Source: Polyangiaceae bacterium
Lineage (GTDB): Bacteria; Myxococcota_A; Polyangia; Polyangiales; Polyangiaceae
Assembly (NCBI GenBank): GCA_033763455.1
Contig: JANRKO010000020.1
Location: forward strand, 32,001 to 96,000
Reading direction: 5' to 3'
DNA: 64,000 nucleotides
Under the pieces are notes generated by a model. That model was given only the letters and a program-made list of their open reading frames with translations, searched no databases and was not told where the DNA came from. The position numbers and the translations under genes were made by a program. Of the stretch, positions 43,124 to 60,834 are shown in pieces. Every line of letters begins with the position of its first letter. The first letter of the stretch is position 1.

Positions 43124-43635
43124 AGGAACCCACGGGGACCGAATGAACACGACAGGATAAAAGCAATACGCCTACCTTCGCAAACAGGTTAGCCCACTTG
43201 CGCTAAGCATATCCAATTACAACATTCACCGGATCTAACGAATCAACACGCGGGCTGCAGGCACTTCTCATACAGAAAGAGCCTTTTTACACAGCAACGA
43301 CGCTGACCAACTTGCAACAGCCGCGCGCATGCGTCCGACCTCAAAAGCAGCGTGTTACTCATGCTAGCAAGCGCGTCCACGTTGTGCGTTCGCGGCATCG
43401 TGTCGCCGTGTTCCTCATGGCAATACTCAAGCCCCCAAACCATCAGGCTCGAGATGCGCAAACGCGAATCGACGAGTTGTCCCCGATGGCGAGGCTGCAT
43501 CCGAACGGCAGCAGACGTACGCGGGGCCTTCGGTGACCCCTCCCTATCCAACGTACGTTTGGAAGAGGCGAATCGCACACCTCAAACCCCAAACGCACAC
43601 CCCTCTGTGAACTATCTGAAACTCTTGAGCTTTTT

Positions 43636-43710
<75 letters not shown>

Positions 43711-43896
43711 GAGCGCGGTGAGGGCGGCTTCATACCATAGGGACCCCAGCGCACAAGAGGGAAAAGACTGTCGACCGCACGGCCGTTTTGAATGTTGTCG
43801 CATATATAGCGATGCGCCGGGCTTGGCGCCCTGAAGGCGCGACACCCTGGCTTTCTGGAGGGCATCTGGGCCACTCTCAGCCCACCGTTGACCCTT

Positions 43897-47163: not shown

Positions 47164-47952
47164 CTATAGCAAGCAAAGCTGCAGCAGATCTCGCTCAACC
47201 GCGCAGATCCCAGTGGCCCCAGTGGCAGCAATGCCGATCTGGTGAACCATACCCACGAGATCAATCCCAATGTACCCCAGCGGATTGACAGGATCCGCGC
47301 CGTACACCGTGCCGAAGGTAGGATCCACAGGGTCCCATGCCACCACGAAGTAGCTTTGCGTAACTCGACCGACGCACGTGGACGTACTGAATCCGTCAAA
47401 ACTGCAGTCGAAATCTTCGGCGAATTCAAAAACGGTATAGTACAAGCTGAAACAGAACGCCGCCGTTGCCGCGGGCGCCGCGGTTGAACTTTGCAGCTGA
47501 ATCACCGGGCTGCAAACCGGCGTGCCACCACTGGTTCCACCTGTATTGGGTGTCCCACCAGTGCTTCCAGGAACGCCACCACTACCAGGCACCCCGCCGG
47601 TGCTTCCCGGAACGCCACCACTGCTTCCAGGCATCCCTCCACTCGCCATCTGACTTCCACCGGAATTGCTCGCCCCGCCGATGCCCATCGCCATGCCACC
47701 GGTGCTTGCACTCGGTTGTCCGCCTGAAGCCGCTCCACCGATACCAGAACCTGGTGCGACAACACACTTCTTCGACATGCAGGTGAGGCCTGCGCTGCAT
47801 GTATCATTGGGGAAACACGCCTGCCCATTGCTCCCGACTACGGCCTCATCGCCGAAATTCCGGTCCGGTGCGCCACACGCAACAGCTACCGCCAGTGTTG
47901 TCCCAAGAGCCCAAAACGCGTGAGTTACCCGCATAAGACCCGATGCAAACAC
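47164..47952 (-). CDS. Lipoprotein with Cys-rich module and Gly/Ser/Thr-rich linker
   Basis: Lipobox AVAC, C-x5-C-x5-C-x4-C module, GG(V/M)PGS(T/S) repeats. Confidence 0.7.
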   Translation of the reverse strand: MFASGLMRVTHAFWALGTTLAVAVACGAPDRNFGDEAVVGSNGQACFPNDTCSAGLTCMSKKCVVAPGSGIGGAASGGQPSASTGGMAMGIGGASNSGGSQMASGGMPGSSGGVPGSTGGVPGSGGVPGSTGGTPNTGGTSGGTPVCSPVIQLQSSTAAPAATAAFCFSLYYTVFEFAEDFDCSFDGFSTSTCVGRVTQSYFVVAWDPVDPTFGTVYGADPVNPLGYIGIDLVGMVHQIGIAATGATGICAVERDLLQLCLL

Positions 47953-47979: not shown

Positions 47980-50094
47980 TTATTGGCCTCGGCCCGGATG
48001 CGGGCGGGCCTGTTTTACAGCCAAAACCGGCACTTGCCCCGGGGGCGCGTCGAACTTGAATTCCACATCCATTCCGTAATACCCAAGCATATCAGCAGGT
48101 GGGGCGTAAGCCGGCGCGAAGTATTGGTGGATTTGGTCGAGCGCCACTCCGAGCTCGTACGTCTGCTCAGCGCTCAGCACCGTGCTACCCGCCTTCACGA
48201 GGTTCGAGTGCGCGAGAAACACGATGGGCTGCCCGGGGGAGTAGAAGTGATAAACAAACTGATCCGTCGTTGTCCCGGGATCCGGCTGCACTACCGACGC
48301 TTCACCCGCTTGCACATTCACATAGAAGCTTGGTTCAAGGCCCGAAACATCAAATGGATTCGAGGTGAGCGCCACGCCATTCGCCTCCTCGTCCGGAAAG
48401 GAGTGAGGCACCAAAAGCGCCATACCGACAGCCTTGTGATCAATGCTCCGGTACTCGCGCTCCTCAAAAGCACGAAAGCTCCACACGCTGGCCCAAACGG
48501 TGCGAACCGCGTTCAAGACGGGGCGCTTCGGGTCCCCGGGCTGCCCACTGACTGACGTGTACAAGCCAGCTCCGGTGAATCCCTCCAGATCTTCCGCATT
48601 GGTACTCGAACGAAAACGCATCCGCACCCCGGGGTAGTCAGCCTGGAGCTTGGCTAGCAGCAGCCCTTCAAACTCTGCATCCACCGGTGCCACTAGCATC
48701 GCGGCGCGCAGCTCGGCGAGCTTCTGATCGCGAAGCTTAGGATCTGCACGAAAAGCGCTGTCCGCCAAGAGCTCATCGACCCTGGCGAAGAACCCATTCT
48801 GTTCCATGAACTGATAATAAAACCAAACCGGAATGCCGAAGGCTTTGGCCACGGGCAACCCCGGGATCTGCGTTAAGACGGAGTAGTGCGAAGCCTTACC
48901 GCCAAATGCGGGAATTGCTGCAGAAATGGCCGCTTTGAGTGGGCCGCTCACGTCCACAATCGACTCTATGTTGGCAAGCTCACGCACGCTCAGATCCAAG
49001 CGTGGCACCTGCACTTGAGTTGGCTTATGCGACTGCCAATAGGCTTCCGCTTCATCAAAGCTAACTTCCTCCACCTTGTATTCAAAGGCGCCCACCGTGA
49101 GCCGAACCCACTTTCCTTCCAAGTTACGCAACTCTGCGTTCGTGGTAGCGTGGCGCAACGCCATATTCGGCGTCCCCCGGTTTTGCGACAACACGTTCAC
49201 ATGCGAAAGCGGGGTCTGAAACTCTTCAGTAATAATGCCGCTCACCACCGAAATGTCATTCGGCACGCGATCAAGGACTACAATATCCCGAAAGCCAACG
49301 TAATCCGTGCCAAGGTTCGCTTCTTGAACAAAGCGCAGGTAGCCTATCGTGACACCCAAGTTGAGTGGTTGATAGTCAATCCCTGAAAATAGGGTATCGT
49401 TCGTGAGGTAGGGGGCGCTTGCGGAAAGCTTGCGCGCCACAAGTTCCAGGCTGCTGGAGGTGGGGTGAAAGAGCAGATCCTTGCCGAAGTAAGCGTGTGC
49501 CTTCACCGCTTCCATGAGCTTCTCGATCAAAGAAACATCGGCCGTGTCGTACGGTGCGATTTCCAGGGCCCATGTTTGGGCCCCCTCGTAGAAGGTGACC
49601 GCCCCTAAAATGAAGCGCCGATCTGGAGAGTAATACTCGGTGCGGTTGAAGTCCGCGAGGGAGCCCACAATCGGCAGCGCTCCACCCGAGAGGTTCTTGG
49701 AAGCGAACTCCCAGTGGATCGGGAATTGGTTACTATTCTGAAAGTACAACTTATCGCCGTCGGCCCGATCGAGCACGACCTTAGCAGAGCGTGCGCCCGG
49801 AATGGTGGCATTCGCCGGGATGGAGGCGAGCACATCGAAATCCCTACGGCAACCCAGATGGCTCAGAAAGCTCGGAGCCGCTTCATCTGAAGCGACACAC
49901 GCGCCTTCCACTGACTGAAGTGGAGGGATGGCCGTTACACGCGGACCATAGTCAACCGCTTCTGGCTCCTTGCTACTACAAGCAACGCTCCAGATGGCCA
50001 AAAGCAACAGCCACCATTGCGCCGATCTCACGGCTGCGCGACTTTGGCCAACCAACGCACGGCTCGCACTTTGCACATTTCCCATAACACTCAC
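47980..50094 (-). CDS. Exported lipoprotein dikinase: N-terminal domain, phospho-His domain, PPDK-type ATP-grasp domain
   Basis: Hydrophobic stretch plus SVAC lipobox; IITEEFQTPLSHVNVLSQNRGTPN; FGGKA, RFRSSTNAEDLEGFTGAGLYTS, VWASVW, MDVEFK, KQARP. Confidence 0.85.
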   Translation of the reverse strand: MSVMGNVQSASRALVGQSRAAVRSAQWWLLLLAIWSVACSSKEPEAVDYGPRVTAIPPLQSVEGACVASDEAAPSFLSHLGCRRDFDVLASIPANATIPGARSAKVVLDRADGDKLYFQNSNQFPIHWEFASKNLSGGALPIVGSLADFNRTEYYSPDRRFILGAVTFYEGAQTWALEIAPYDTADVSLIEKLMEAVKAHAYFGKDLLFHPTSSSLELVARKLSASAPYLTNDTLFSGIDYQPLNLGVTIGYLRFVQEANLGTDYVGFRDIVVLDRVPNDISVVSGIITEEFQTPLSHVNVLSQNRGTPNMALRHATTNAELRNLEGKWVRLTVGAFEYKVEEVSFDEAEAYWQSHKPTQVQVPRLDLSVRELANIESIVDVSGPLKAAISAAIPAFGGKASHYSVLTQIPGLPVAKAFGIPVWFYYQFMEQNGFFARVDELLADSAFRADPKLRDQKLAELRAAMLVAPVDAEFEGLLLAKLQADYPGVRMRFRSSTNAEDLEGFTGAGLYTSVSGQPGDPKRPVLNAVRTVWASVWSFRAFEEREYRSIDHKAVGMALLVPHSFPDEEANGVALTSNPFDVSGLEPSFYVNVQAGEASVVQPDPGTTTDQFVYHFYSPGQPIVFLAHSNLVKAGSTVLSAEQTYELGVALDQIHQYFAPAYAPPADMLGYYGMDVEFKFDAPPGQVPVLAVKQARPHPGRGQ

Positions 50095-50766
50095 TCAAAA
50101 CTTGTAGCGATAGCTGGCACCCAGGATAACTACGCTTGGGTCATTCACATCCACCTGCTCCTGGTCCAAATAACCAAAGAGGCCGAAGCGGTGCGGCTTC
50201 AGGCTAAAGTCAGCACCCACGGCCCAGCGCATCTGCTTCCATTGGGTGCCATTGCTTCCCCCAACGCGCGTGCTCGTTTCGACGCCAACGTACGGCTCTA
50301 GGCTTTTGGTAACTTTGTAGCCCGCCTGCAGGCGATTTCGCACGGCTTTCCGCGTCTTGCGGCTCGCATCGGTGGGGATCTGGGTCTGAAGTCGCAGGCG
50401 ATAATCTAGGATGAACTTCCCCAGCTCTGGCGCTACCGAAACATCTGCGTAAAGGCGATTCCAGCTTTCGAAGGCGTCGTTCTTGTCTCGTCGTTCGATG
50501 TGGCGGTAGCCCACGCCAGGAGTAAGCCACTTGGTAACGTCGTATGAGAAGGAAAAATCTGGGCTCACCTCCACCACCTGAAAGGGAGCGGTGCCGAAGG
50601 CCAGCTTCTGCTCAAACTCAAGGGTTGCAGCTTTGATCGGGCTCCACGCCACGGAAGGCTCTGCCCATAGCTCAACCAGGGTTTCGGCACGTGCCGGGCT
50701 CGCAAGCGTGCTGAGCCCCACGACACCAACGAGCATGCCGACCAAGTGCTTTAGCGTCCTATTCAT
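50095..50766 (-). CDS. Outer-membrane beta-barrel protein (DUF2490-like)
   Basis: Signal peptide ending ARA, amphipathic strands, YRLRLQ and RNRLQAGY motifs, C-terminal YRYKF beta-signal. Confidence 0.75.
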   Translation of the reverse strand: MNRTLKHLVGMLVGVVGLSTLASPARAETLVELWAEPSVAWSPIKAATLEFEQKLAFGTAPFQVVEVSPDFSFSYDVTKWLTPGVGYRHIERRDKNDAFESWNRLYADVSVAPELGKFILDYRLRLQTQIPTDASRKTRKAVRNRLQAGYKVTKSLEPYVGVETSTRVGGSNGTQWKQMRWAVGADFSLKPHRFGLFGYLDQEQVDVNDPSVVILGASYRYKF

Positions 50767-50803
50767 AGGCTTCTTTTCAGACAACGCGGGGGTTGGATGC
50801 GCG

Positions 50804-51751
50804 TCACGGGGCACACGTTAGATTCCCTTGGCAAACACGCCCGCCGGGGCAATCCGCTGTTTCGTGGCAAGAGACCACGCCCGGAAGCGCGACATCCCGG
50901 ACAACTCCCGATTCAACGCGGAGCCGCACTGTGCCCGGAGCAATTTCAGTGCTTCCCGAGCTCACCCGTTTGAGAGAAATACTGGGAAAACCGGCAACTC
51001 CGAGCGCCACCAACTGGCTTATCAAATCAGCGTCGATCTCTAAGTTGCCCGTGTCCGCTGCATCACACTCTACAGCCCCCTTGCTGCCGCCATGATGCGA
51101 GATGTCGAGCTTCACCTCTATCCGGTGAGCCGGAGTGGCACTCATGGGTGGCTCCCAGCTCAACATCAAAGGCTGGCCGGGCTCAAGAGCCACAGGCCCA
51201 GCAGATACCAGGGGTGCCACCATTGAGCTCTTGATCGAAAACATGCCGTACAGGCTTTGGGCAACTACGAGCTCAACGGGAGCTCCCTCGCGCGCGGGGG
51301 GAAAATCGAGCGTGAGGCCCGGCGGAGCCGAATACCTTCCCGCTACCGCCACGAGGCTGAGAGGCCCCGTGCCCAAGCCGGCTAACACCACTTCGCCGAC
51401 ATCTTGAGCTATGGGGAATGATTGGCATTGATTGGTCTCAACGCATAAGTGGCCGGAGCCACAGCCGGGGTTGCAGAAAGGTGCACGCGGCTTACGAAGC
51501 GCACACGCTCCCTTCTCTGCCACCAAATCCCAAACTACCGCTGAGGGGGACGGGCCATCCAAAACAGCGCCAGAAATCCCAGTGTAAGCGACGTTGGTGC
51601 CCGTGGCCGCGTGGAGGTCAATCAAGAAGGTGCCAACCAGGGCCCCAGTCCTCGCAGCCGAAGGCTCCAGATCGCGCGGCTCGGAGGAGCAGCTCCCGAG
51701 CACGCCAAGCGCTGCGAGCACTAGCGACCATGATCCAATCCAATCTGACAT
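50804..51751 (-). CDS. Cys-containing lipoprotein of unknown function
   Basis: Lipobox LGSC; CNPGCGSGHLC and a C-terminal CHETADCPGGRVCQGNLTC. Start set at MSDW. Confidence 0.75.
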   Translation of the reverse strand: MSDWIGSWSLVLAALGVLGSCSSEPRDLEPSAARTGALVGTFLIDLHAATGTNVAYTGISGAVLDGPSPSAVVWDLVAEKGACALRKPRAPFCNPGCGSGHLCVETNQCQSFPIAQDVGEVVLAGLGTGPLSLVAVAGRYSAPPGLTLDFPPAREGAPVELVVAQSLYGMFSIKSSMVAPLVSAGPVALEPGQPLMLSWEPPMSATPAHRIEVKLDISHHGGSKGAVECDAADTGNLEIDADLISQLVALGVAGFPSISLKRVSSGSTEIAPGTVRLRVESGVVRDVALPGVVSCHETADCPGGRVCQGNLTCAP

Positions 51752-51788: not shown

Positions 51789-52919
51789 TCACGGCGTGAG
51801 GGCAAAACAGTAGATCCCGCCGTAGCCGCCACCGGAACCAACGATGGGGTTTTGTGGATCAGAACCACCGTTCCCTTCGATCGCCACTCCCGCACCGCAG
51901 CCGCCTTCGCTCTGCCCGGAAATCCAGTGGATGCGGTCCGAAATAGACCAAGAGAAACCTATGCGCGGGCGACCAGCGAGAACGCTATTGTCTGGATCGA
52001 CAACTCCATTGTTCTTGGAGGTAGACGTCCAGTCCAAGCAGGTGGCCTTGCTTCCTGAGCATTCTGGACAATCTGCGTCCTCATAAAGCATGCCTTGGGC
52101 ATCCGAGCCAGTAAGCACGTGGTGGTTATCCGCCTCGGGGAGATTGAGATCGGGCTGGTGATTCGGAGTTCCAGTTTCATTCGGGAGATCCTCCTTAATT
52201 GCCGGATGGGCCCCATCCGGGCGCTCCATAAGCAGAGCTGTCTTGTTTTCAGCCACCACCCTACCGAGTCGATCGTACCATGGCCCCTCGCCGATGCGAT
52301 CGCGAGCGTGCACTGGCGTTCCATTTCCTGCAATACTCAGAAAAGCCCGCCACTGCTTAACACCTGAGCCTGGCATCGAGCTCTCGGCGATCTCCGTGCA
52401 AATCTTGTCTGCACCGGCCAGCCCCGAGGCTTGCCCATACCGAAGATCGCCACCAAAGCCGTCTGGGCTGCCGGAGAGCCGGCGCATCGCATCCAGGCTC
52501 GTCATGAAGAAGCTAAAATGCGGTAAATCGGCCCCCGCGCCACCCGTTGCCGAGCCTCCACCCTGGGCACTGCTACTGCCCCCGACGCCCGGGTTGCCCC
52601 CCACTGGCGCATTGTTTCCACCGCCACTCGCGAGATTCGACCCACCTCCCGCTGGGCCTCCAACACCTGAACCACCAGTTGCCGCGCTTGCGCCACCCGC
52701 TCCATTCGATTTACCGCCGCTCGCGTTTTGCGCGCCACCAATCGCCAAAGGCCCCTGCCCGCCTGTGCTCGCGCTTTTGAAGCTCGATCCGGAATCGGAC
52801 GAACATGCGACAAAACTCAGACTCATCAGAGCCAGTGAGGCAAGCGCGCCCAGCGAGCGCAATCGCGTGGCAGTAAATGATTCTGAGGTGAACGGAGAAA
52901 TCCCGCAAAAAACAGCCAT
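51789..52919 (-). CDS. Lipoprotein with Gly-rich linker and endostatin/C-type-lectin-like domain
   Basis: Lipobox FVAC; GGDL..GLAGADKIC..WRAFLS..ARDRIGEGPWYD..TGSD..CLDWTS..IYCFA. Start uncertain. Confidence 0.72.
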   Translation of the reverse strand: MAVFCGISPFTSESFTATRLRSLGALASLALMSLSFVACSSDSGSSFKSASTGGQGPLAIGGAQNASGGKSNGAGGASAATGGSGVGGPAGGGSNLASGGGNNAPVGGNPGVGGSSSAQGGGSATGGAGADLPHFSFFMTSLDAMRRLSGSPDGFGGDLRYGQASGLAGADKICTEIAESSMPGSGVKQWRAFLSIAGNGTPVHARDRIGEGPWYDRLGRVVAENKTALLMERPDGAHPAIKEDLPNETGTPNHQPDLNLPEADNHHVLTGSDAQGMLYEDADCPECSGSKATCLDWTSTSKNNGVVDPDNSVLAGRPRIGFSWSISDRIHWISGQSEGGCGAGVAIEGNGGSDPQNPIVGSGGGYGGIYCFALTP

Positions 52920-53079
52920 AAAATCGCGGAAGCGTAGCTGGATTGTCATCGTGCCGTCAACAACCACCCGGAGCCCATTGGCGAGTTTAAAAACTACTTG
53001 GCATGCTAAGAATCAACGTTGCGGGCGAAAGGGCCCTCCGGCTCGCTTGGGCGTATTTCCGTGTCGCGACATCCCGGCA

Positions 53080-54210
53080 TCACTCAAAAAGGCCGCGCCA
53101 TACCTCGGGCGTCCAAGTTCCGGTCGCCGTATCCAAGCCCTTAAAACTCCCGCCGTCGTCCCAATACGCCCAACCGAAACCACAACGTTCGGCTTCGGTG
53201 CGCACGAGCCGCAAGAAGCGCACACGCGAAGCCGCATCTGCCTTGTTGATAGCCCCAAATTCCCCCATATACACGCTTCGGCCGGTTGATTTTGTGTAAG
53301 CCGCGGCTACCTCAAATTGGTGCAGGACGGCACGATACCCGCTCGGATTTTCGTCAGAGGGCAAGGTGTTGTAGCCCTCAAACCACTTACGCACCCACTC
53401 GAGCGACTCTGCCGCAGGTTCAGGTTTCACCGGCACAGCGGGAGGGCCCGGAAAGACGATCCCTGTGGTTGCATATTCGGGCCCCGCCCAATTCGCCCCC
53501 TGATGTGTGAATAGAGCGGGCTGATACATGTGAAACGAAGCCATAATTCGGGGATCTTCTGCCAGCACTAGCTGATGAAGCGCCGCCGCGGAGGCCCAGT
53601 CGAAGCTATCCGCGATCAGAAGGCGCGTCGGGTTGCTTGCGCGCACCACCGGGATCACTCGCGCGTAGAGTTCATTCACCTGAGTTGGAGTGAGTGGACT
53701 CCGTGGCTCATTCAACAACTCAAAAGCCACAGATTCTGGGTACTCTCGGTAGCGCTCGGCAACCTGCCGCCAAATTTCGACGAAGCGTTCCGTGTGCGCC
53801 GCTAGGTTCTCGATCAACTCGTTGTAGTGATGAAAGTCTAGAATAACGCCCAGGGCGTGCCTGGCAGCTTGCTCCAGCGCCCAATCAACGCGTGCCATGA
53901 ACCTCGGGTCCAGGGTGTAGGGGGGCTCGCTCAAAGCGTGCGCATTGAAGCGAACTGGCAGCCGCACATGATCTAGCTTTGCCGCGGCGACGCCACGAAA
54001 ATGCCTCTCGTTCAGGGTCACATTCCACTCCCCTTCCTTCGGAGCGTCGAGCGCATTTCCGAGGTTAAGCCCACGCTTGAAGGCAACTTCTCCGCCCGCA
54101 ACCGCAACCGCGCCACGGGCAGGCTCCGCCTTAGGGATACACGCATGACCGGCCATGCAACAGCCTGCCCCTAGGCCAAGAAAAGAACGACGCAACATAC
54201 CTGCAGCCAT
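53080..54210 (-). CDS. Glycoside hydrolase family 5 (endoglucanase-like), Tat/lipoprotein signal
   Basis: LRRSFL twin-Arg motif; RGLNLGNAL, HVRLPV, ILDFHH, FELLNEP (acid/base), FHMY, YMGEFG (nucleophile), WAYWD. Confidence 0.92.
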   Translation of the reverse strand: MAAGMLRRSFLGLGAGCCMAGHACIPKAEPARGAVAVAGGEVAFKRGLNLGNALDAPKEGEWNVTLNERHFRGVAAAKLDHVRLPVRFNAHALSEPPYTLDPRFMARVDWALEQAARHALGVILDFHHYNELIENLAAHTERFVEIWRQVAERYREYPESVAFELLNEPRSPLTPTQVNELYARVIPVVRASNPTRLLIADSFDWASAAALHQLVLAEDPRIMASFHMYQPALFTHQGANWAGPEYATTGIVFPGPPAVPVKPEPAAESLEWVRKWFEGYNTLPSDENPSGYRAVLHQFEVAAAYTKSTGRSVYMGEFGAINKADAASRVRFLRLVRTEAERCGFGWAYWDDGGSFKGLDTATGTWTPEVWRGLFE

Positions 54211-54260
54211 AGTGCCGAGGCGCAGGCTGGGAAAGGCACGAAAGCGCCCGCGCTCTCGGG

Positions 54261-54959
54261 TCACCCGGTCCTAGTTGTCAAGCTCCGTGCTCGTTGCCAC
54301 ACCAAAGAGCCAACCACCCACCCCACGCCTACGCCGGCATGCCCCGAAAATAAATGCAAAATATCGAGGCTCGGGCAATGGAAACTCAAAAGCAGATTGG
54401 CAACCACACCCACAAGCGCACCTCGCAGTATTAACGAACGCGTCGACGGAGCATCACTCCGATCTAGGAGTGCTAGCAAGAACGCGAGCGGGGCCGAATA
54501 CAACACACCGTGCGGAAAACATTCGAGCCCTTGAAACAGAGACTCACGGGCGGGCGCTGAGCCCACCGAGCCAACCGCAAAGGCGACCCAAAACGGCGCC
54601 AACACGAGAAATGCGCCAACGGTCAGAACCCTATCGCTGCGCGACCAAGTACCCGAGCGCAACCACAGGCTGGCCCCATGGGCTATTAGTAGGAGCTGCC
54701 CCACAACAATCGGCCAACTCCCGAGCAGCACCTGAAGGCGACCACTCTGTTCAGCTTCGAGCAGCATTAACCCCCCGAGCATGAGCGCCACCATTGCAAA
54801 TCGCAGCCGCGAGCTTCGGCTCCGGAGCCATGCTCGCGGCCCTTTTTCGCGGGCAAGTTGAGCCTCGAGGTTTGCAAAGAGGGCGTCAACCTCTGCCCCC
54901 GTCGGCGGCGCGCCCTTGAAGGCTGCTGCATCTTTCTGGGAGTTGTCGACGGAGATCAT
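54261..54959 (-). CDS. Multi-TM anti-sigma factor (NrsF/DUF1109-like)
   Basis: Overlaps the ECF stop codon (ATGA); about 6 TMs; conserved C..., LSFHCP...H pattern. Confidence 0.7.
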   Translation of the reverse strand: MISVDNSQKDAAAFKGAPPTGAEVDALFANLEAQLAREKGPRAWLRSRSSRLRFAMVALMLGGLMLLEAEQSGRLQVLLGSWPIVVGQLLLIAHGASLWLRSGTWSRSDRVLTVGAFLVLAPFWVAFAVGSVGSAPARESLFQGLECFPHGVLYSAPLAFLLALLDRSDAPSTRSLILRGALVGVVANLLLSFHCPSLDILHLFSGHAGVGVGWVVGSLVWQRARSLTTRTG

Positions 54960-56244: not shown

Positions 56245-56899
56245 TCCGCTACTCACCTTGTGGCGCCGGCCCGTGCAAAACACCCATCAAACGCCCACCT
56301 TTTGGGAGTCTGCACGAGTATCTGCGCAGCGAGCCTCCCATCCACCCAGTCCGAGAAACCTTGGAAACCAGGCGCAGGGCCCGCGGAGGCCAAGACGACC
56401 TAAGGTTCCAGAAGCGCAGCAAGACCCTAACACGAGGCGTGCCACCGCGCGAGTGGAACTTCAAACCCTTGGCAAAGGCGGCGTCCCGCGTGAGCCAGGG
56501 AATATCCACTGACGCCGACGAGACCCGAACGACCCAACGACTGGCCAGCGAGCCTACTTTCACCTCTGTGACACTCATTTGTCACGCACTTGTCACTTTA
56601 ACCAACCGGCCCCATACTTGGGTTCATGTTGACCAGGCTCCCCAGGAGGTTTCGACGCCAACTCTCCACGCGCGTTCTCGCTCCCCTTCGCGAAATGGAG
56701 CGTGAAGATCAGTGGGAGGCACGTTTAGTCGCTCTTACGGCGGTAAGTGCGAGCGTGATGGTGCTTCTACTTCGCGTGTGGTCCTAGCGCCCGCTGATCC
56801 AAAGGCCACTTGTTGGAGGCTGGGCTGCCAGGTTTCGGACCTTGGGACCTAGGAGCGGTCCAACCCTTTTTCCGACCCGCCGCTTCAGCGTGTTTTTCG

Positions 56900-56972
56900 T
56901 AGGCGGGACAGGACTCGAACCTGCGACATCCGGCTTGTAAGGCCAGCGCTCTACCAACTGAGCTACCCGCCT
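56900..56972 (-). tRNA. tRNA-Val(TAC)
   Basis: AGGCGGG/CCCGCCT acceptor stem; D-arm TAGCTCAGTTGGTAGAGC; anticodon loop CT-TAC-AA; GGTTCGAGTCC; CCA not encoded. Confidence 0.95.
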
Positions 56973-57041: not shown

Positions 57042-59510
57042 TTACGAAATCCCCGGCTGCTCCACCGGGGGGTGTTCGACCAAGCCGGGAATTCGAGGGT
57101 CCACGGGCTCAAGCGCTTTGAGCGAACCGTCGATGAGCTCCCCCTCACGATACTCAAGCACCAGCCGGCGGGGGCCAAACATCTGGTCGGGGTTATCCAC
57201 GGCGAGGGCTTCGCGCAGCACGTCGTCCATGTGATCCACAAGGACGATCCGTAGCCCCCCGAGCACACGTCGCGGAACCTCCTTCAAATCTTTGCGGTTC
57301 TCTTTGGGCACGAGCACCGTCTTGATGCCGTTGCGATGTGCGGCCAAAAGCTTTTCCTTGAGGCCACCGATTGGCATCACCCGACCCCTGAGCGTGATCT
57401 CGCCCGTCATGGCGAGCTCGTGCCGAACTGGAATGCGGGCCAAAGCACTGGCAATGCCCGTGGCCATGGTAACACCCGCGCTCGGACCATCCTTGCGAAC
57501 GAAATCTGGAAAGTGAACGTGAACGTCCACCTTCTGGTAAAAATCTTTGTCGAGACCAAGGGTAGTGGCGCGGGAGCGAATGTAGCTCATGGCCGCCTGG
57601 CCACTCTCTTCCATCCCTTTTTCAAGAAGCCCCGTGATGACAAGCTTGCCCTTACCGGCAACCACGCTCACCTCACAGTCCAAGATATCTCCCCCGTAAT
57701 CAGACACGCTCAAGCCGTGAACGAGCCCAATCTGATTTTCTTCGTCTTTTTGGCCAAGCCGATACTTCGGGACCCCCAAGTACTTGGGAACATCCTCTGG
57801 CTTGATCACAACTTTGACTTGCTTGCCGTCTTTCACGACACGCAATGCGATCTTCCGACACAGGCTTGAGATTTCGCGCTCAAGGTTACGAACGCCGGCT
57901 TCTTTCGTGTAGTGGTGGATGACGGTGCGCAGCGTCGCCTGCCCCATGTCGATATCCACATCTTCGAGGCCGCACTCCTTTTTCTGCCGCGGCACCAGGT
58001 ATTGCTGCGCGATATTGAGCTTATCGTATTCGGTGTAGCTCGTGAGTTGAATGATCTCCATGCGATCTTGCAGAGGAAGCGGGATGCCACTCAGCGTGTT
58101 GGCTGTAGTGATGAACATCACGTCCGAAAGATCGTAATCTAGATCTAGGTAGTGATCGTTAAAGGTACTGTTCTGTTCCGGATCCAACACCTCAAGGAGT
58201 GCTGAAGCCGGGTCGCCCCGAAAATCAGCGCTCATCTTATCCACTTCATCCAGCAAGAAGACGGGGTTATTCGAGCCCACCTTCTTCAAGTTCTGGATCA
58301 GCTTGCCAGGCAAAGCACCGATATACGTTCGGCGGTGACCGCGGATCTCCGCTTCATCTCGCACGCCCCCTAAAGACAATCGAACGAATTTGCGACCCAT
58401 GGCGCGCGCGATGCTGCGCGCAATGCTCGTCTTGCCGACACCCGGAGGGCCCACAAAACACAAAATGGGGCCCTTGAGCTGCTTGGTGAGCGCCTGCACT
58501 GCCAAGTACTCGATGATGCGCTCCTTGCACTTTTTGAGTCCGTAGTGGTCCTCATCCAAGATGCGCTCGGCCTCTTCAATATCAAAACGCTCCGGCGTTT
58601 TGTCGAACCAAGGCAACCCGACGACCCAATCAATATAATTCCGAACCACTGTAGCTTCGGCACTCGTAGGGTGCATCATTTTGAGCTTCTTGAGCTCGCG
58701 CTTCATCTTACCGAGCGCTTCTTCGCTCATCTTCTTGGTCTTCAGCTTCTCTTCAAGCTCAGCCAAATCGCTCTTGAATTCATCACGCTCGCCGCCACCA
58801 AGCTCCTTCTGAATGGCCTGCATTTGCTCATTCAGGTAATATTCCTTCTGCGTCTTCTCCATCTGCTTTTTGACGCGAGAACGGATCTTCTTCTCAACCT
58901 GCAGGATCTCAATCTCAGCCTGCATGAGCTCGTACAAGCGCTCCAAGCGCTTCTTGGCGTCGAGCATTTCGAGCAAGCCTTGCCTATCAGCAAGCTTAAT
59001 GGTCGGTAGATTGGCCGCGATGGTATCTGCGAGCTTTGAAGGATCTTCAATGCTCTGCACAGCCATGAGGATCTCAGGCTGTACTTTCTTGTTCAGCTTT
59101 ACGTACACCTCGAAGGTGCTCTGAACACTGCGGATCAACGCCTCAACTTCAACGTCGCCGTCGGTTGCGTCACTTAACTCATCCAACTCAACCTGGAAGA
59201 ATTCACGCGTATCTATGTAGTTCCGCACCCGCGCACGCCTGCGACCTTCGATGAGCACCTTAACGGTGCCGTCCGCAAGACGGAGCAGTTGCACAATCGT
59301 GCCCACGGTGCCGATGGCGTAGATGTCCTCCGAAACAGGATCATTGGTCTTGGCGCTCTTCTGAGCCGCCAGAAATACTTCCTTGTCCCCCGCCATTGCC
59401 GCATCGAGTGCCGCGATGCTTTTCTCTCGCCCCACGAACAGTTGGGACACCATGTGTGGAAAAACAATAATGTCGCGAAGCGGAAGTGCAGGAATGGGTC
59501 GACGTGACAC
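57042..59510 (-). CDS. lon: ATP-dependent protease La
   Basis: [42 protein letters not shown]. Confidence 0.98.
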
Positions 59511-59580
59511 GTTAGCCCTTAGGGTTTAGAAATGTTGAAGGATTGTAGGGGAATGAGGCGCGAGTGGCCCAGCCGACGCC

Positions 59581-60834
59581 TCAGCCGACGCCTGCTTCCT
59601 TGTGATAGACAATCAACGGGGCTTCACCTTTGACGATGACGTCCTCATTGATGACCACTTCCTTGATCCCTTGCTGAGAGGGGATCTCGTACATGATGTC
59701 GAGCATCGCCTCTTCCATGATCGCCCTGAGCCCACGTGCGCCGCTCTCGCGGGCTAAGGCTTTTCTGGCGATGGCGGCAAGTGCTGCTTTGGCAAACTTC
59801 AGCTTCACGCCGTCCATCTCGAAGAGCTTCTGGAATTGCTTTACCAAGCTATTCTTAGGCTTCGTCAAAATATCGATCAACGCTTCTTCGGTGAGCTCAT
59901 GCAGAGTTGCCACTACTGGTAAACGCCCGATGAACTCGGGAATTAGGCCAAACTTCAGCAAATCTTCAGGCTGGACGCTGGCCAAAAGATCCCCAAGGCG
60001 CAGCTCGTTCTTACTCTTGATATCCGCACCAAAACCCAAGCGAGACTGGCCAAGGCGCCGCTGAATGATCTGATCGAGCCCTACAAACGCACCACCACAG
60101 ATGAACAGAATATTGCTGGTATCCACCTGCAAAAAATCCTGTTGTGGATGCTTGCGACCACCTTTGGGCGGCACGTTAGCGACGGTGCCTTCGATAATCT
60201 TCAGAAGTGCTTGCTGCACACCTTCGCCAGACACGTCGCGCGTGATGGACGGATTGTCGCTCTTTCTGCTGATCTTGTCGATTTCATCGATATAAACAAT
60301 GCCACGCTGAGCGCGCTCGACATCGTGGTCAGCATTCTGCAGGAGTTGCACGATGATGTTTTCAACGTCCTCGCCCACGTAGCCGGCTTCGGTCAGAGTA
60401 GTTGCGTCCGCAATGGCGAACGGAACCTTAAGGATCTTCGCGAGCGTCTGCGCAAGAAGCGTCTTTCCGCTACCGGTAGGCCCAAGCAGCAGAATGTTGC
60501 TCTTGCCAAGCTCAACGTCGTCCGACGCTATCTTGGTGTCGATGCGCTTATAGTGGTTGTGAACCGCTACCGAGAGCACCTTCTTCGCGCGATCTTGGCC
60601 AACGACGTAGTCGTCCAGGATGGCCTTGATCTCCGAAGGCTTGGGCATCGGATCTGAACCATTGCTGGGCTCGTCCTTTTCAACCTCCTCGGCGATGATG
60701 TCATTGCAGAGGGCAATGCACTCGTCGCAGATGTAGACCGTTGGCCCAGCAATAAGCTTTTTTACTTCCTTCTGGGATTTTCCACAGAAGGAGCAGCACA
60801 AGTTGCCATTTGAATCGTCTCGCCGTCGCTCCAC
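59581..60834 (-). CDS. clpX: Clp protease ATP-binding subunit ClpX
   Basis: CSFCGK..CDEC Zn finger, [30 protein letters not shown] loop. Confidence 0.98.

Follow-up and report, generated by a model that had tools for sequence, protein, structure and literature searches.

An exported phosphohistidine dikinase of a Polyangiaceae bacterium with a possible role in envelope polyphosphate chemistry

A stretch of 64,000 nucleotides from a Polyangiaceae bacterium (GenBank assembly GCA_033763455.1, contig JANRKO010000020.1, positions 32,001 to 96,000; hereafter the window) carries on its minus strand a gene for a dikinase-like lipoprotein, which we analyse here by sequence comparison, structure prediction and gene context. 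The protein is a real, exported variant of the swivelling phosphohistidine dikinases, and a new one: no paper describing its family was found in a literature search outside which most subscription journals lay, and databases name family members by their PPDK_N domain only. In its closest relatives the gene occurs together with genes for a VTC-type polyphosphate (polyP) polymerase, the membrane protein DUF4956 and CotH kinases. The reading that we prefer, with a probability of roughly 0.4, is that of an envelope shuttle between polyP and adenine nucleotides, for which polyP would be a direct substrate.

Results

The gene and its export signal

The dikinase open reading frame (ORF) spans 47980-50094 on the minus strand and comprises 704 amino acids counted from its GTG codon; the database gene call begins at Met4 (ATG 50083-50085), giving 701 amino acids. 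Gene and domains are laid out as follows:

47980..50085, minus strand: gene of the exported dikinase-like lipoprotein (701 aa counted from Met4), in an ORF that begins with GTG at 50094
49978..50085, minus strand: predicted lipoprotein signal peptide (from the sequence), ending at lipobox Cys39, whose codon (49978-49980) follows a hydrophobic stretch
49375..49917, minus strand: novel N-terminal domain, residues ~60-240 (alignment; model pLDDT 96.1)
49039..49377, minus strand: phospho-His swivel domain, residues 240-352 (fold and alignment), with the His298 codon at 49201-49203
47983..48990, minus strand: ATP-grasp nucleotide-binding domain, residues 369-704 (Pfam PPDK_N, fold and alignment)

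The plus strand across 47980-50094 is interrupted by stops. All motifs quoted in a preliminary description of this DNA, made from the sequence alone, are present in the minus-strand translation, and the codon position it had named for the swivel histidine is indeed that of His298 (CAT). DNA contigs from three sequencing runs cover parts of the operon without indels. One residue is unusual, Pro563 (codon 48406-48408), which occurs in a single row of a 128-row family alignment, the other 127 differing and distant members having mostly His or Gln; one public DNA contig, which may derive from the source sample itself, spans this codon unchanged. A scan for promoters and terminators gave no excess over chance.

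The lipobox signal peptide claimed in the preliminary description was recovered as well. The protein passes a bacterial lipoprotein test by our own PROSITE-like rule (basic n-region, hydrophobic h-region, lipobox Cys), which is a rule-based call and not a SignalP prediction. By this rule a lipobox is found in 97 of 120 close homologues, compared with 129 of the 687 long ORFs in the bacterium's own genome, while a hydrophobic N-terminal stretch is found in 103 of the 120 homologues, in 247 of the 687 background ORFs and in none of 120 bacterial PWD-like proteins. One or the other feature is present in 107/120 close, 104/118 distant full-length and 101/120 long homologues, and the alignment retains Cys39 itself in 55 of the 56 close rows and 40 of the 72 distant ones. 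A start at the alternative GTG codon 50029-50031 would give a signal of 18 aa. Judged from these N-termini, export from the cytoplasm is a family-wide trait.

Fold and catalytic residues

An AlphaFold model built from the 128-row alignment (pLDDT 93.4, pTM 0.90) consists of a signal helix, an alpha/beta domain (residues ~60-240), a swivel (240-352) and an ATP-grasp domain (369-704). The model bears out what had been proposed from the bare sequence, namely a swivel around the SH motif, followed by a C-terminal ATP-grasp domain and no pyruvate-binding barrel. The swivel adopts a phosphocarrier fold, with matches to 2e28 (Z 10.5, rmsd 3.0, 102 residues aligned), to enzyme I (2wqd, Z 10.3) and to the PPDK carrier domain (2fm4, Z 8.2); its His298 is invariant in 128 of 128 alignment rows, and, in a weak alignment, the family profile pairs the His motif with the catalytic His of PEP synthases of solved structure. 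The ATP-grasp domain matches RPH (5hv1, Z 30.9, rmsd 2.3, 291 residues aligned) and PPDK (Z 16.0). Within it, all 128 rows share Lys400, Arg495, Gln695 and Arg697, and nearly all share Asp676 and Glu678. Pfam assigns PPDK_N only, and the chain stops after the ATP-grasp domain, so that there is no pyruvate-binding barrel. The protein has the hallmarks of swivelling phospho-His dikinases, that is, the conserved ATP-grasp Lys, Arg, Asp, Glu, Gln and Arg together with a swivel bearing a conserved His, and on these residues its dikinase machinery looks active. That the protein is an exported, active His shuttle appears very likely.

The N-terminal domain, which had been put at ~200 aa, is present as described, although its size is closer to 180 aa. 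Modelled alone, it reaches a pLDDT of 96.1. The family shares an invariant His127 and Tyr154 and a near-invariant Lys105, Arg159, Glu178 and Asp183, and a Cys66/Cys82 pair is conserved in the close clade defined below. The conserved residues may form a catalytic or anion-binding site, a putative second site for a phosphoryl donor or acceptor. Foldseek returned no match for this domain at E up to 0.001, and in the ESM Atlas it fell into unnamed or family clusters only.

A lineage near the starch dikinases

Enzymes of the PpsA, PPDK and RPH type are cytoplasmic and carry their ATP-grasp domain first. The dikinase shares with them, and with PigC/RedH and HpeI (9goj), the ATP-grasp fold and residues as well as the swivelling phospho-His domain, but differs in its architecture. 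In PpsA and PPDK, the ATP-grasp domain is followed by the His domain and a C-terminal pyruvate barrel, which the dikinase lacks; in RPH, PigC and RedH, ATP-grasp comes first, a substrate domain lies in the centre and the His domain is last, whereas the dikinase has another order and no rifampin domain. With its His domain ahead of a C-terminal ATP-grasp domain, it instead has the order of the starch dikinases GWD and PWD, as the preliminary description had recognised and as the model and fold matches confirm.

The His domains of the two groups are also related. Pfam GWD1_pHisD (PF22973) matches 26 of 73 family members (best E 1.2e-6), compared with 2 of 73 for PEP-utilizers. In hhalign comparisons the family His domain reached 97.9% with bacterial PWD (94-97% with 4-row subsamples), 84% with GWD (4 rows), 14% with PPDK (7 rows) and 6% with PpsA (4 rows), and a bacterial PWD-like protein is 25% identical to the dikinase, collinearly, over dikinase residues 271-608. 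Kinship to GWD was judged from Pfam and from bacterial GWD/PWD-like proteins, not from plant sequences. GWD and PWD are described as being without a high-resolution structure (PMC12892837).

In a tree of the ATP-grasp domain (66 rows), the family forms one clade (100/100) that is grouped with bacterial PWD at 62/65. A grouping of PWD with PpsA/RPH-like rows occurred in 38% of bootstrap trees, and one of the family with PpsA plus RPH-like rows in 0% of 200. This tree holds no plant rows, GWD-type rows were left out (their ATP-grasp motifs come in another order), the 'RPH-like' labels were given by eye, the long-branch sequence L197 was omitted from the careful version, and P0005 was skipped by the motif rule. 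On these comparisons, the dikinase is a distinct lineage, and one that probably lies near GWD/PWD. It could conceivably be a cytoplasmic or inactive relative of PpsA or RPH that carries a lipobox by chance, but we regard this as hardly credible: PpsA and RPH are indeed its best NCBIfam models and Pro563 is unusual, yet the scores of 54 and 47 bits compare with cut-offs of 598 and 999 (PigC is also far below), the family clade stays apart from PpsA and RPH-like rows throughout the bootstrap trees, the same genome encodes a true PpsA elsewhere, on contig C66, and export signals are found family-wide.

The dikinase is not itself a GWD or PWD, because it is without their glucan domains and because the true bacterial GWD/PWD proteins form a separate, cytoplasmic group. 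The starch-binding module and the large glucan region are missing, and only the unrelated N-domain of ~180 aa precedes the His domain; its profile found no match among 120 PWD-like and 4 GWD-like proteins (best E 2.7), and no CBM domain was matched at E up to 10 in 73 family members. The dikinase is exported, whereas the bacterial PWD-like proteins have no hydrophobic N-terminus, and PF22973 scores 54-116 bits in true bacterial members as against 15.8 bits (E 0.011, below the gathering cut-off of 27 bits) in the dikinase. In 151 genomes of its own phylum, PF22973 gave 3 weak matches, all of them members of the exported family and none above cut-off. Of 201 genomes belonging to another phylum, 6 carry true bacterial GWD/PWD-like tandem pairs, and 1019 relatives were found, some of them labelled Planctomycetota or Desulfobacterales. 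At one locus (L184:4440-11505, minus strand; also L185-L187), the tandem comprises a GWD-like protein of 1184 aa and a PWD-like protein of 1169 aa fused to a TIM barrel, beside a gene that by eye resembles a glycosyltransferase. Such tandems bear on the origin of starch phosphorylation.

The exported family itself is large, with 2853 matches among 8000 candidates and 1168 representatives at 50% identity (E up to 1e-30). Named close relatives come mostly from Myxococcota and in some cases from Fibrobacterota, and distant ones include Bacteroidota. Long forms bear T9SS tails, CARDB, LTD, cadherin, fn3, LRR, SLH or RTX domains. Among the 120 such fusions listed, no starch-binding Pfam family appears. 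Giant surface proteins of 2000-3500 aa occur as well (P0139, P0254, P0272-P0273), two of which, P0139 and P0254, have two PPDK_N stretches among fn3/Ig repeats. The genome studied here has a second family copy (G000:C6:688213-691248; L165:8217-11222), a lipoprotein with a lamin-tail (LTD) domain before the same three domains and no adjoining gene for c1, the partner lipoprotein described below.

Co-occurrence with VTC, DUF4956 and CotH

Co-occurrence was assessed throughout in one set of 201 related genomes, apparently a mixed group, 60 of which constitute a close clade (E under 1e-170, a threshold chosen after seeing the scores). VTC is present in 53 of 93 genomes with any family member and in 5 of 108 without. 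For the close clade and the rest, the counts are as follows: VTC is found in 50/60 versus 8/141 genomes, DUF4956 in 44/60 versus 8/141 and CotH in 49/60 versus 22/141, with at least three CotH matches in 39/60 versus 2/141. CBM20, which served as a control, showed no co-occurrence (12 of 60 close-clade and 26 of 141 other genomes). Five genera were chosen for a comparison at genus level. Carriers of the dikinase and of VTC are the same genomes in three of them (g135, g141 and g127); the other two are discordant, with one VTC-only genome in g123 and two dikinase-only genomes in g1. VTC is also present in each of five further carrier genomes, among them one with the label Chitinispirillaceae and one with the label Planctomycetales. 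The polyP link is thus strong for the close clade and unproven for the family as a whole, and within that clade a functional tie of the dikinase to a VTC/CotH module is likely.

These data also bear on the acceptor that the preliminary description had raised as a possibility, a polysaccharide outside the cytoplasm, which we do not favour. In its support, one may cite the order of the domains, the closeness of the His domain to that of PWD/GWD and the grouping with bacterial PWD in the best ATP-grasp tree, where support is 62/65 only. However, neither the protein nor the 120 long fusions listed contain a CBM or a GWD glucan domain, the N-domain profile matched none of the PWD/GWD-like proteins compared, and no recurring glycosyltransferase appeared among the neighbours scanned (74 of 119 unassigned representatives), glycoside hydrolases appearing only once or twice. 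As VTC, DUF4956 and CotH co-occur with the dikinase and CBM20 does not, the context favours phosphate rather than glucan. There is a precedent for contact of the module with polysaccharides, for the pel loci of Gram-positive bacteria include genes for CotH, a polyP polymerase and DUF4956 (10.1101/768473), and deletion of the CotH-like or the MgtC-like membrane gene altered Pel levels and aggregation (PMC12345266). The trio of VTC, DUF4956 and CotH that accompanies the dikinase is the same as in these loci and recalls the yeast VTC complex, but the cited passages on pel contain no dikinase, and the dikinase loci have no pel operon and combine the trio with Gram-negative parts (DUF2490, Porin O/P, HlyD and lipoproteins). 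Overall, phosphorylation of an extracellular glucan or exopolysaccharide strikes us as quite improbable.

Gene neighbourhood and the partner lipoprotein c1

In the window, the dikinase gene is the fourth in a tight minus-strand run consisting of c2, c1, a DUF2490 barrel and the dikinase. The genes around it are:

51789..52967, minus strand: lipoprotein 'c2', whose linker is Gly/Ser-rich and which DUF1554 matches weakly (Pfam E 7.7e-4, below cut-off); in 28/80 loci
50804..51751, minus strand: partner lipoprotein 'c1', 315 aa, Cys-rich, with invariant His220 and Arg262; in 54/80 loci
50095..50814, minus strand: DUF2490 outer-membrane-barrel-like gene (Pfam DUF2490 E 3.1e-11), its stop 9 nt before the dikinase ATG
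47164..47952, minus strand: co-oriented downstream lipoprotein-like ORF, 27 nt after the dikinase stop, of uncertain operon membership and absent from the recurring neighbour clusters

Loci from 80 genomes were compared with neighbour HMMs that were seeded from these same loci, so that a match of the seeds themselves is a given; Pfam confirmed the representatives. The most frequent neighbours are c1 (54 loci), c2 (28), an SGL-type propeller (24), VTC (15) and DUF4956 (14), followed by a DUF3108-like lipoprotein (12), Porin O/P, LTD and a long thymidylate-kinase-like protein (6 each), CotH (5) and DUF2490 (3). The 15 loci with VTC represent 15 different anchor clusters at 70% identity, and the three with DUF2490 (L011, L018 and L023) all have this gene after VTC-DUF4956. 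Among the 119 unassigned neighbour representatives, the 74 scanned included two more CotH proteins by Pfam, an HlyD adaptor, a phosphodiesterase and scattered single enzymes, but not a glycosyltransferase. Closed genomes contain the runs c2-c1-dikinase-CotH-DUF4956 (G327) and c2-c1-dikinase-DUF4956-HlyD (G240). In 80 further loci, retrieved from metagenomes by means of a Bacteroidota-type profile, DUF4956 lies near the dikinase in 22, of which 20 are low-GC; at 55% identity the 22 form five anchor clusters, the largest with 12 members.

Several arrangements deserve mention in their own right. The genome studied here has a run of CotH, a small membrane protein, VTC and DUF4956 that is unlinked to the window (G000:C60:15048-20153; L164:6052-11064), and a similar block of five to six genes adjoins the dikinase in L019, L028, L032, L059 and L074. 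At low-GC Bacteroidota-type loci (L125, L128, L131, L133, L134, L142, L146-L152 and others), a lone DUF4956 gene converges on the dikinase from just downstream, with no VTC nearby. The thymidylate-kinase-like neighbour, of 560-650 aa, has its P-loop domain at the N-terminus (L017:2406-4085, L027:1200-2963, L051:3397-5343) and could be a nucleotide or polyP kinase. A GH5 cellulase-family gene upstream of the operon (53080-54264, minus strand) was considered as glucan context and rejected, as it is not a recurring neighbour. Elsewhere in the window, by eye, ORF translations at ~43600-43750 and ~56850-56930 resemble read-through of tRNA genes, and Lon and ClpX genes lie at 57042-60834.

The most frequent neighbour, c1, is found in 44 of 60 close-clade genomes and in none of the 141 others. 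It has no match in Pfam, NCBIfam or PDB sequences, no solved relative being detected by sequence, and its ESM Atlas clusters are unnamed and mostly myxococcotal. A complex prediction for the dikinase and c1 scored 0.67, compared with 0.00 for the best of 3 controls, and passed a mark that is reached by 116 of 157 solved complexes and by 2 of 215 mismatched pairs, though this calibration applies only roughly to our own alignments. At least 77% of contacts are shared between runs, and the partner pLDDT is at least 84. The predicted interface bridges the N-domain (residues 111, 122-158 and 182-186) and the ATP-grasp domain (584-588, 617-622 and 642-646), at positions that the close clade conserves and that vary or are missing in distant members. 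It includes c1 residues 219-224 around the invariant His220 as well as N-domain residues next to His127, Tyr154 and Asp183. The prediction supports binding of c1 to the dikinase.

The position of the His220 loop raises the question of whether c1 could be a phosphoryl acceptor. An ATP-consuming ecto-dikinase running forward (ATP + H2O + X -> AMP + Pi + X-P) would phosphorylate a protein or small molecule X at the N-domain, possibly c1 His220 in a relay of the enzyme I/HPr kind, with ATP coming from another envelope source such as enzymes of the polyP module or lysed cells; the VTC link would then be indirect. The ATP-grasp domain is most like that of water dikinases, whose forward reaction is favourable, and T9SS surface forms and LTD-fused forms exist, some of them in genomes without VTC. 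Against this, 16 of the 60 close-clade genomes lack c1, as do all 141 others (33 of which have distant members only). The N-domain site, by contrast, is conserved across the whole family, so the general acceptor cannot be c1; nor has an ATP source for this reaction been identified. We consider it unlikely, if the most serious competitor of the shuttle.

Discussion

A proposed polyphosphate/nucleotide shuttle

The preliminary description had pointed out that such an enzyme would need ATP outside the cytoplasm. The problem is real, as the bacterial envelope is, to our knowledge, taken to lack ATP, and the VTC link, which was not seen at the time, offers a candidate answer. We propose that the dikinase is a lipid-anchored envelope enzyme of three domains, whose swivel would ferry phosphate on His298 between the ATP/AMP site of the C-terminal domain and a second site in the N-domain, made up of Lys105, His127, Tyr154, Arg159, Glu178 and Asp183. 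In the close clade, c1 may clamp the N-domain and the ATP-grasp domain, presenting its invariant His220 loop at the interface. The enzyme would work with the VTC polyP polymerase and the membrane partner of the latter, DUF4956, together with an HlyD adaptor or a barrel in the outer membrane, and polyP delivered to the envelope would be the phosphoryl partner at the second site, allowing the interconversion of polyP and adenine nucleotides. Its most likely use would be the reaction AMP + polyP(n) -> ATP + polyP(n-2), feeding exported CotH kinases. His autophosphorylation and swivelling are inferred here from the chemistry of PPDK, PEPS, RPH and GWD, and polyP export by VTC-DUF4956, a role of polyP as substrate and the direction of the reaction are conjecture. 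Class III PPK2 enzymes convert AMP and polyP to ATP, which is the net reaction proposed for the dikinase; they are cytoplasmic and have an unrelated P-loop fold.

For the second site, structural comparison offers a lead. The best rows for the N-domain are the phosphohistidine phosphatase PHPT1 (2nmm, Z 4.2, rmsd 3.6, 83 of 113 residues aligned) and the head domain of polyphosphate kinase 1 (9uuh, Z 4.2; 1xdo, Z 3.7). The aligned ranges of the PHPT1 matches (rmsd 3.6-3.9, Z 4.0-4.2) share a constant offset, model residue 45 corresponding to chain residue 18 and 44 to 17, which, provided that no gap falls in the first strand, would put Lys105 on PHPT1 Lys21. His127 begins the first helix of the PHPT1-aligned part and may be the counterpart of PHPT1 His53, to judge from secondary structure and the PHPT1 layout. 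Pfam returned nothing relevant for 77 N-domains, PF05005 (PHPT1/Ocnus) included, and PF05005 did not match the dikinase gene in a search of its own genome. In PHPT1, Lys21 and His53 are residues of the catalytic site, as stated in the cited part of PMC4817053. The likeness of the N-domain to PHPT1 and the PPK1 head is weak and a lead only.

The same likeness would suit a phosphate-scavenging ecto-ATP diphosphohydrolase, in which the N-domain would hydrolyse phospho-His298 in the manner of PHPT1 (ATP + 2 H2O -> AMP + 2 Pi), Pi would enter through the barrel or a porin, and VTC would store it inside. PHPT1 His53 is reported to activate water in the cited passage of PMC11277029, and genes for Porin O/P, a phosphodiesterase, GDPD and a DSP phosphatase are among the dikinase neighbours. 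This scheme leaves c1 and the expansion of CotH unexplained, however, and simple nucleotidases convert ATP to AMP and 2 Pi without a swivel; we hold it to be very unlikely.

A number of observations weigh against the shuttle. Two genomes of one genus (G152 and G153, 94% complete) have an LTD-fused copy and no match for VTC, DUF4956 or CotH, while a closed genome on one contig (G219, 100% complete) has all three and no dikinase match; among genomes with distant members only, VTC is present in 3 of 33. Fisher p-values for the co-occurrence are overstated, since related genomes are not independent. VTC lies outside the window, and it is near the dikinase in only 15 of 80 genome loci (12 of the 43 that span 15 kb or more, many contigs being short) and in only 2 of the 80 metagenome loci, both high-GC. 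PPK1 and PPK2 are also encoded in the genome, so that VTC is not its sole polyP enzyme, and no paper was found that shows polyP export by a bacterial VTC-DUF4956 pair. The Z scores of the N-domain are within background, where the best Z without a true match is typically 7-8, and its profile retrieved nothing relevant from PDB sequences. The ATP-grasp domain is nearer to the water dikinases than to PPDK (the Z scores of 30.9 and 16.0 given above), and with water chemistry the synthesis of ATP from polyP is uphill; a version of the shuttle that supplies ATP therefore needs polyP to stand in for water or Pi in the nucleotide site too. Moreover, CotH would release ADP, not AMP. While the shuttle as such is our preferred, if tentative, reading, a net supply of ATP to CotH kinases seems doubtful. 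The same reserve applies to the complete picture, in which VTC-DUF4956 would export polyP, the dikinase-c1 complex would make ATP via His298 and a PHPT1-like loading site, and CotH kinases would spend it, in an envelope energy circuit common to many Gram-negative bacteria and built around an exported sister lineage of the starch dikinases; this we regard as possible but rather unlikely.

Implications for envelope biology

Whichever direction the reaction takes, a widespread, conserved and exported ATP-grasp phosphotransferase implies that nucleotide chemistry must occur outside the cytoplasm. What the family adds is a new substrate domain, a dedicated partner whose interface has been predicted, and a lineage that is probably close to GWD and PWD. 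Its link to VTC, DUF4956 and CotH makes two questions testable, namely what fuels the secreted kinases of bacteria and what role bacterial VTC plays. If an envelope ATP circuit were confirmed, the dikinase would be categorically new.

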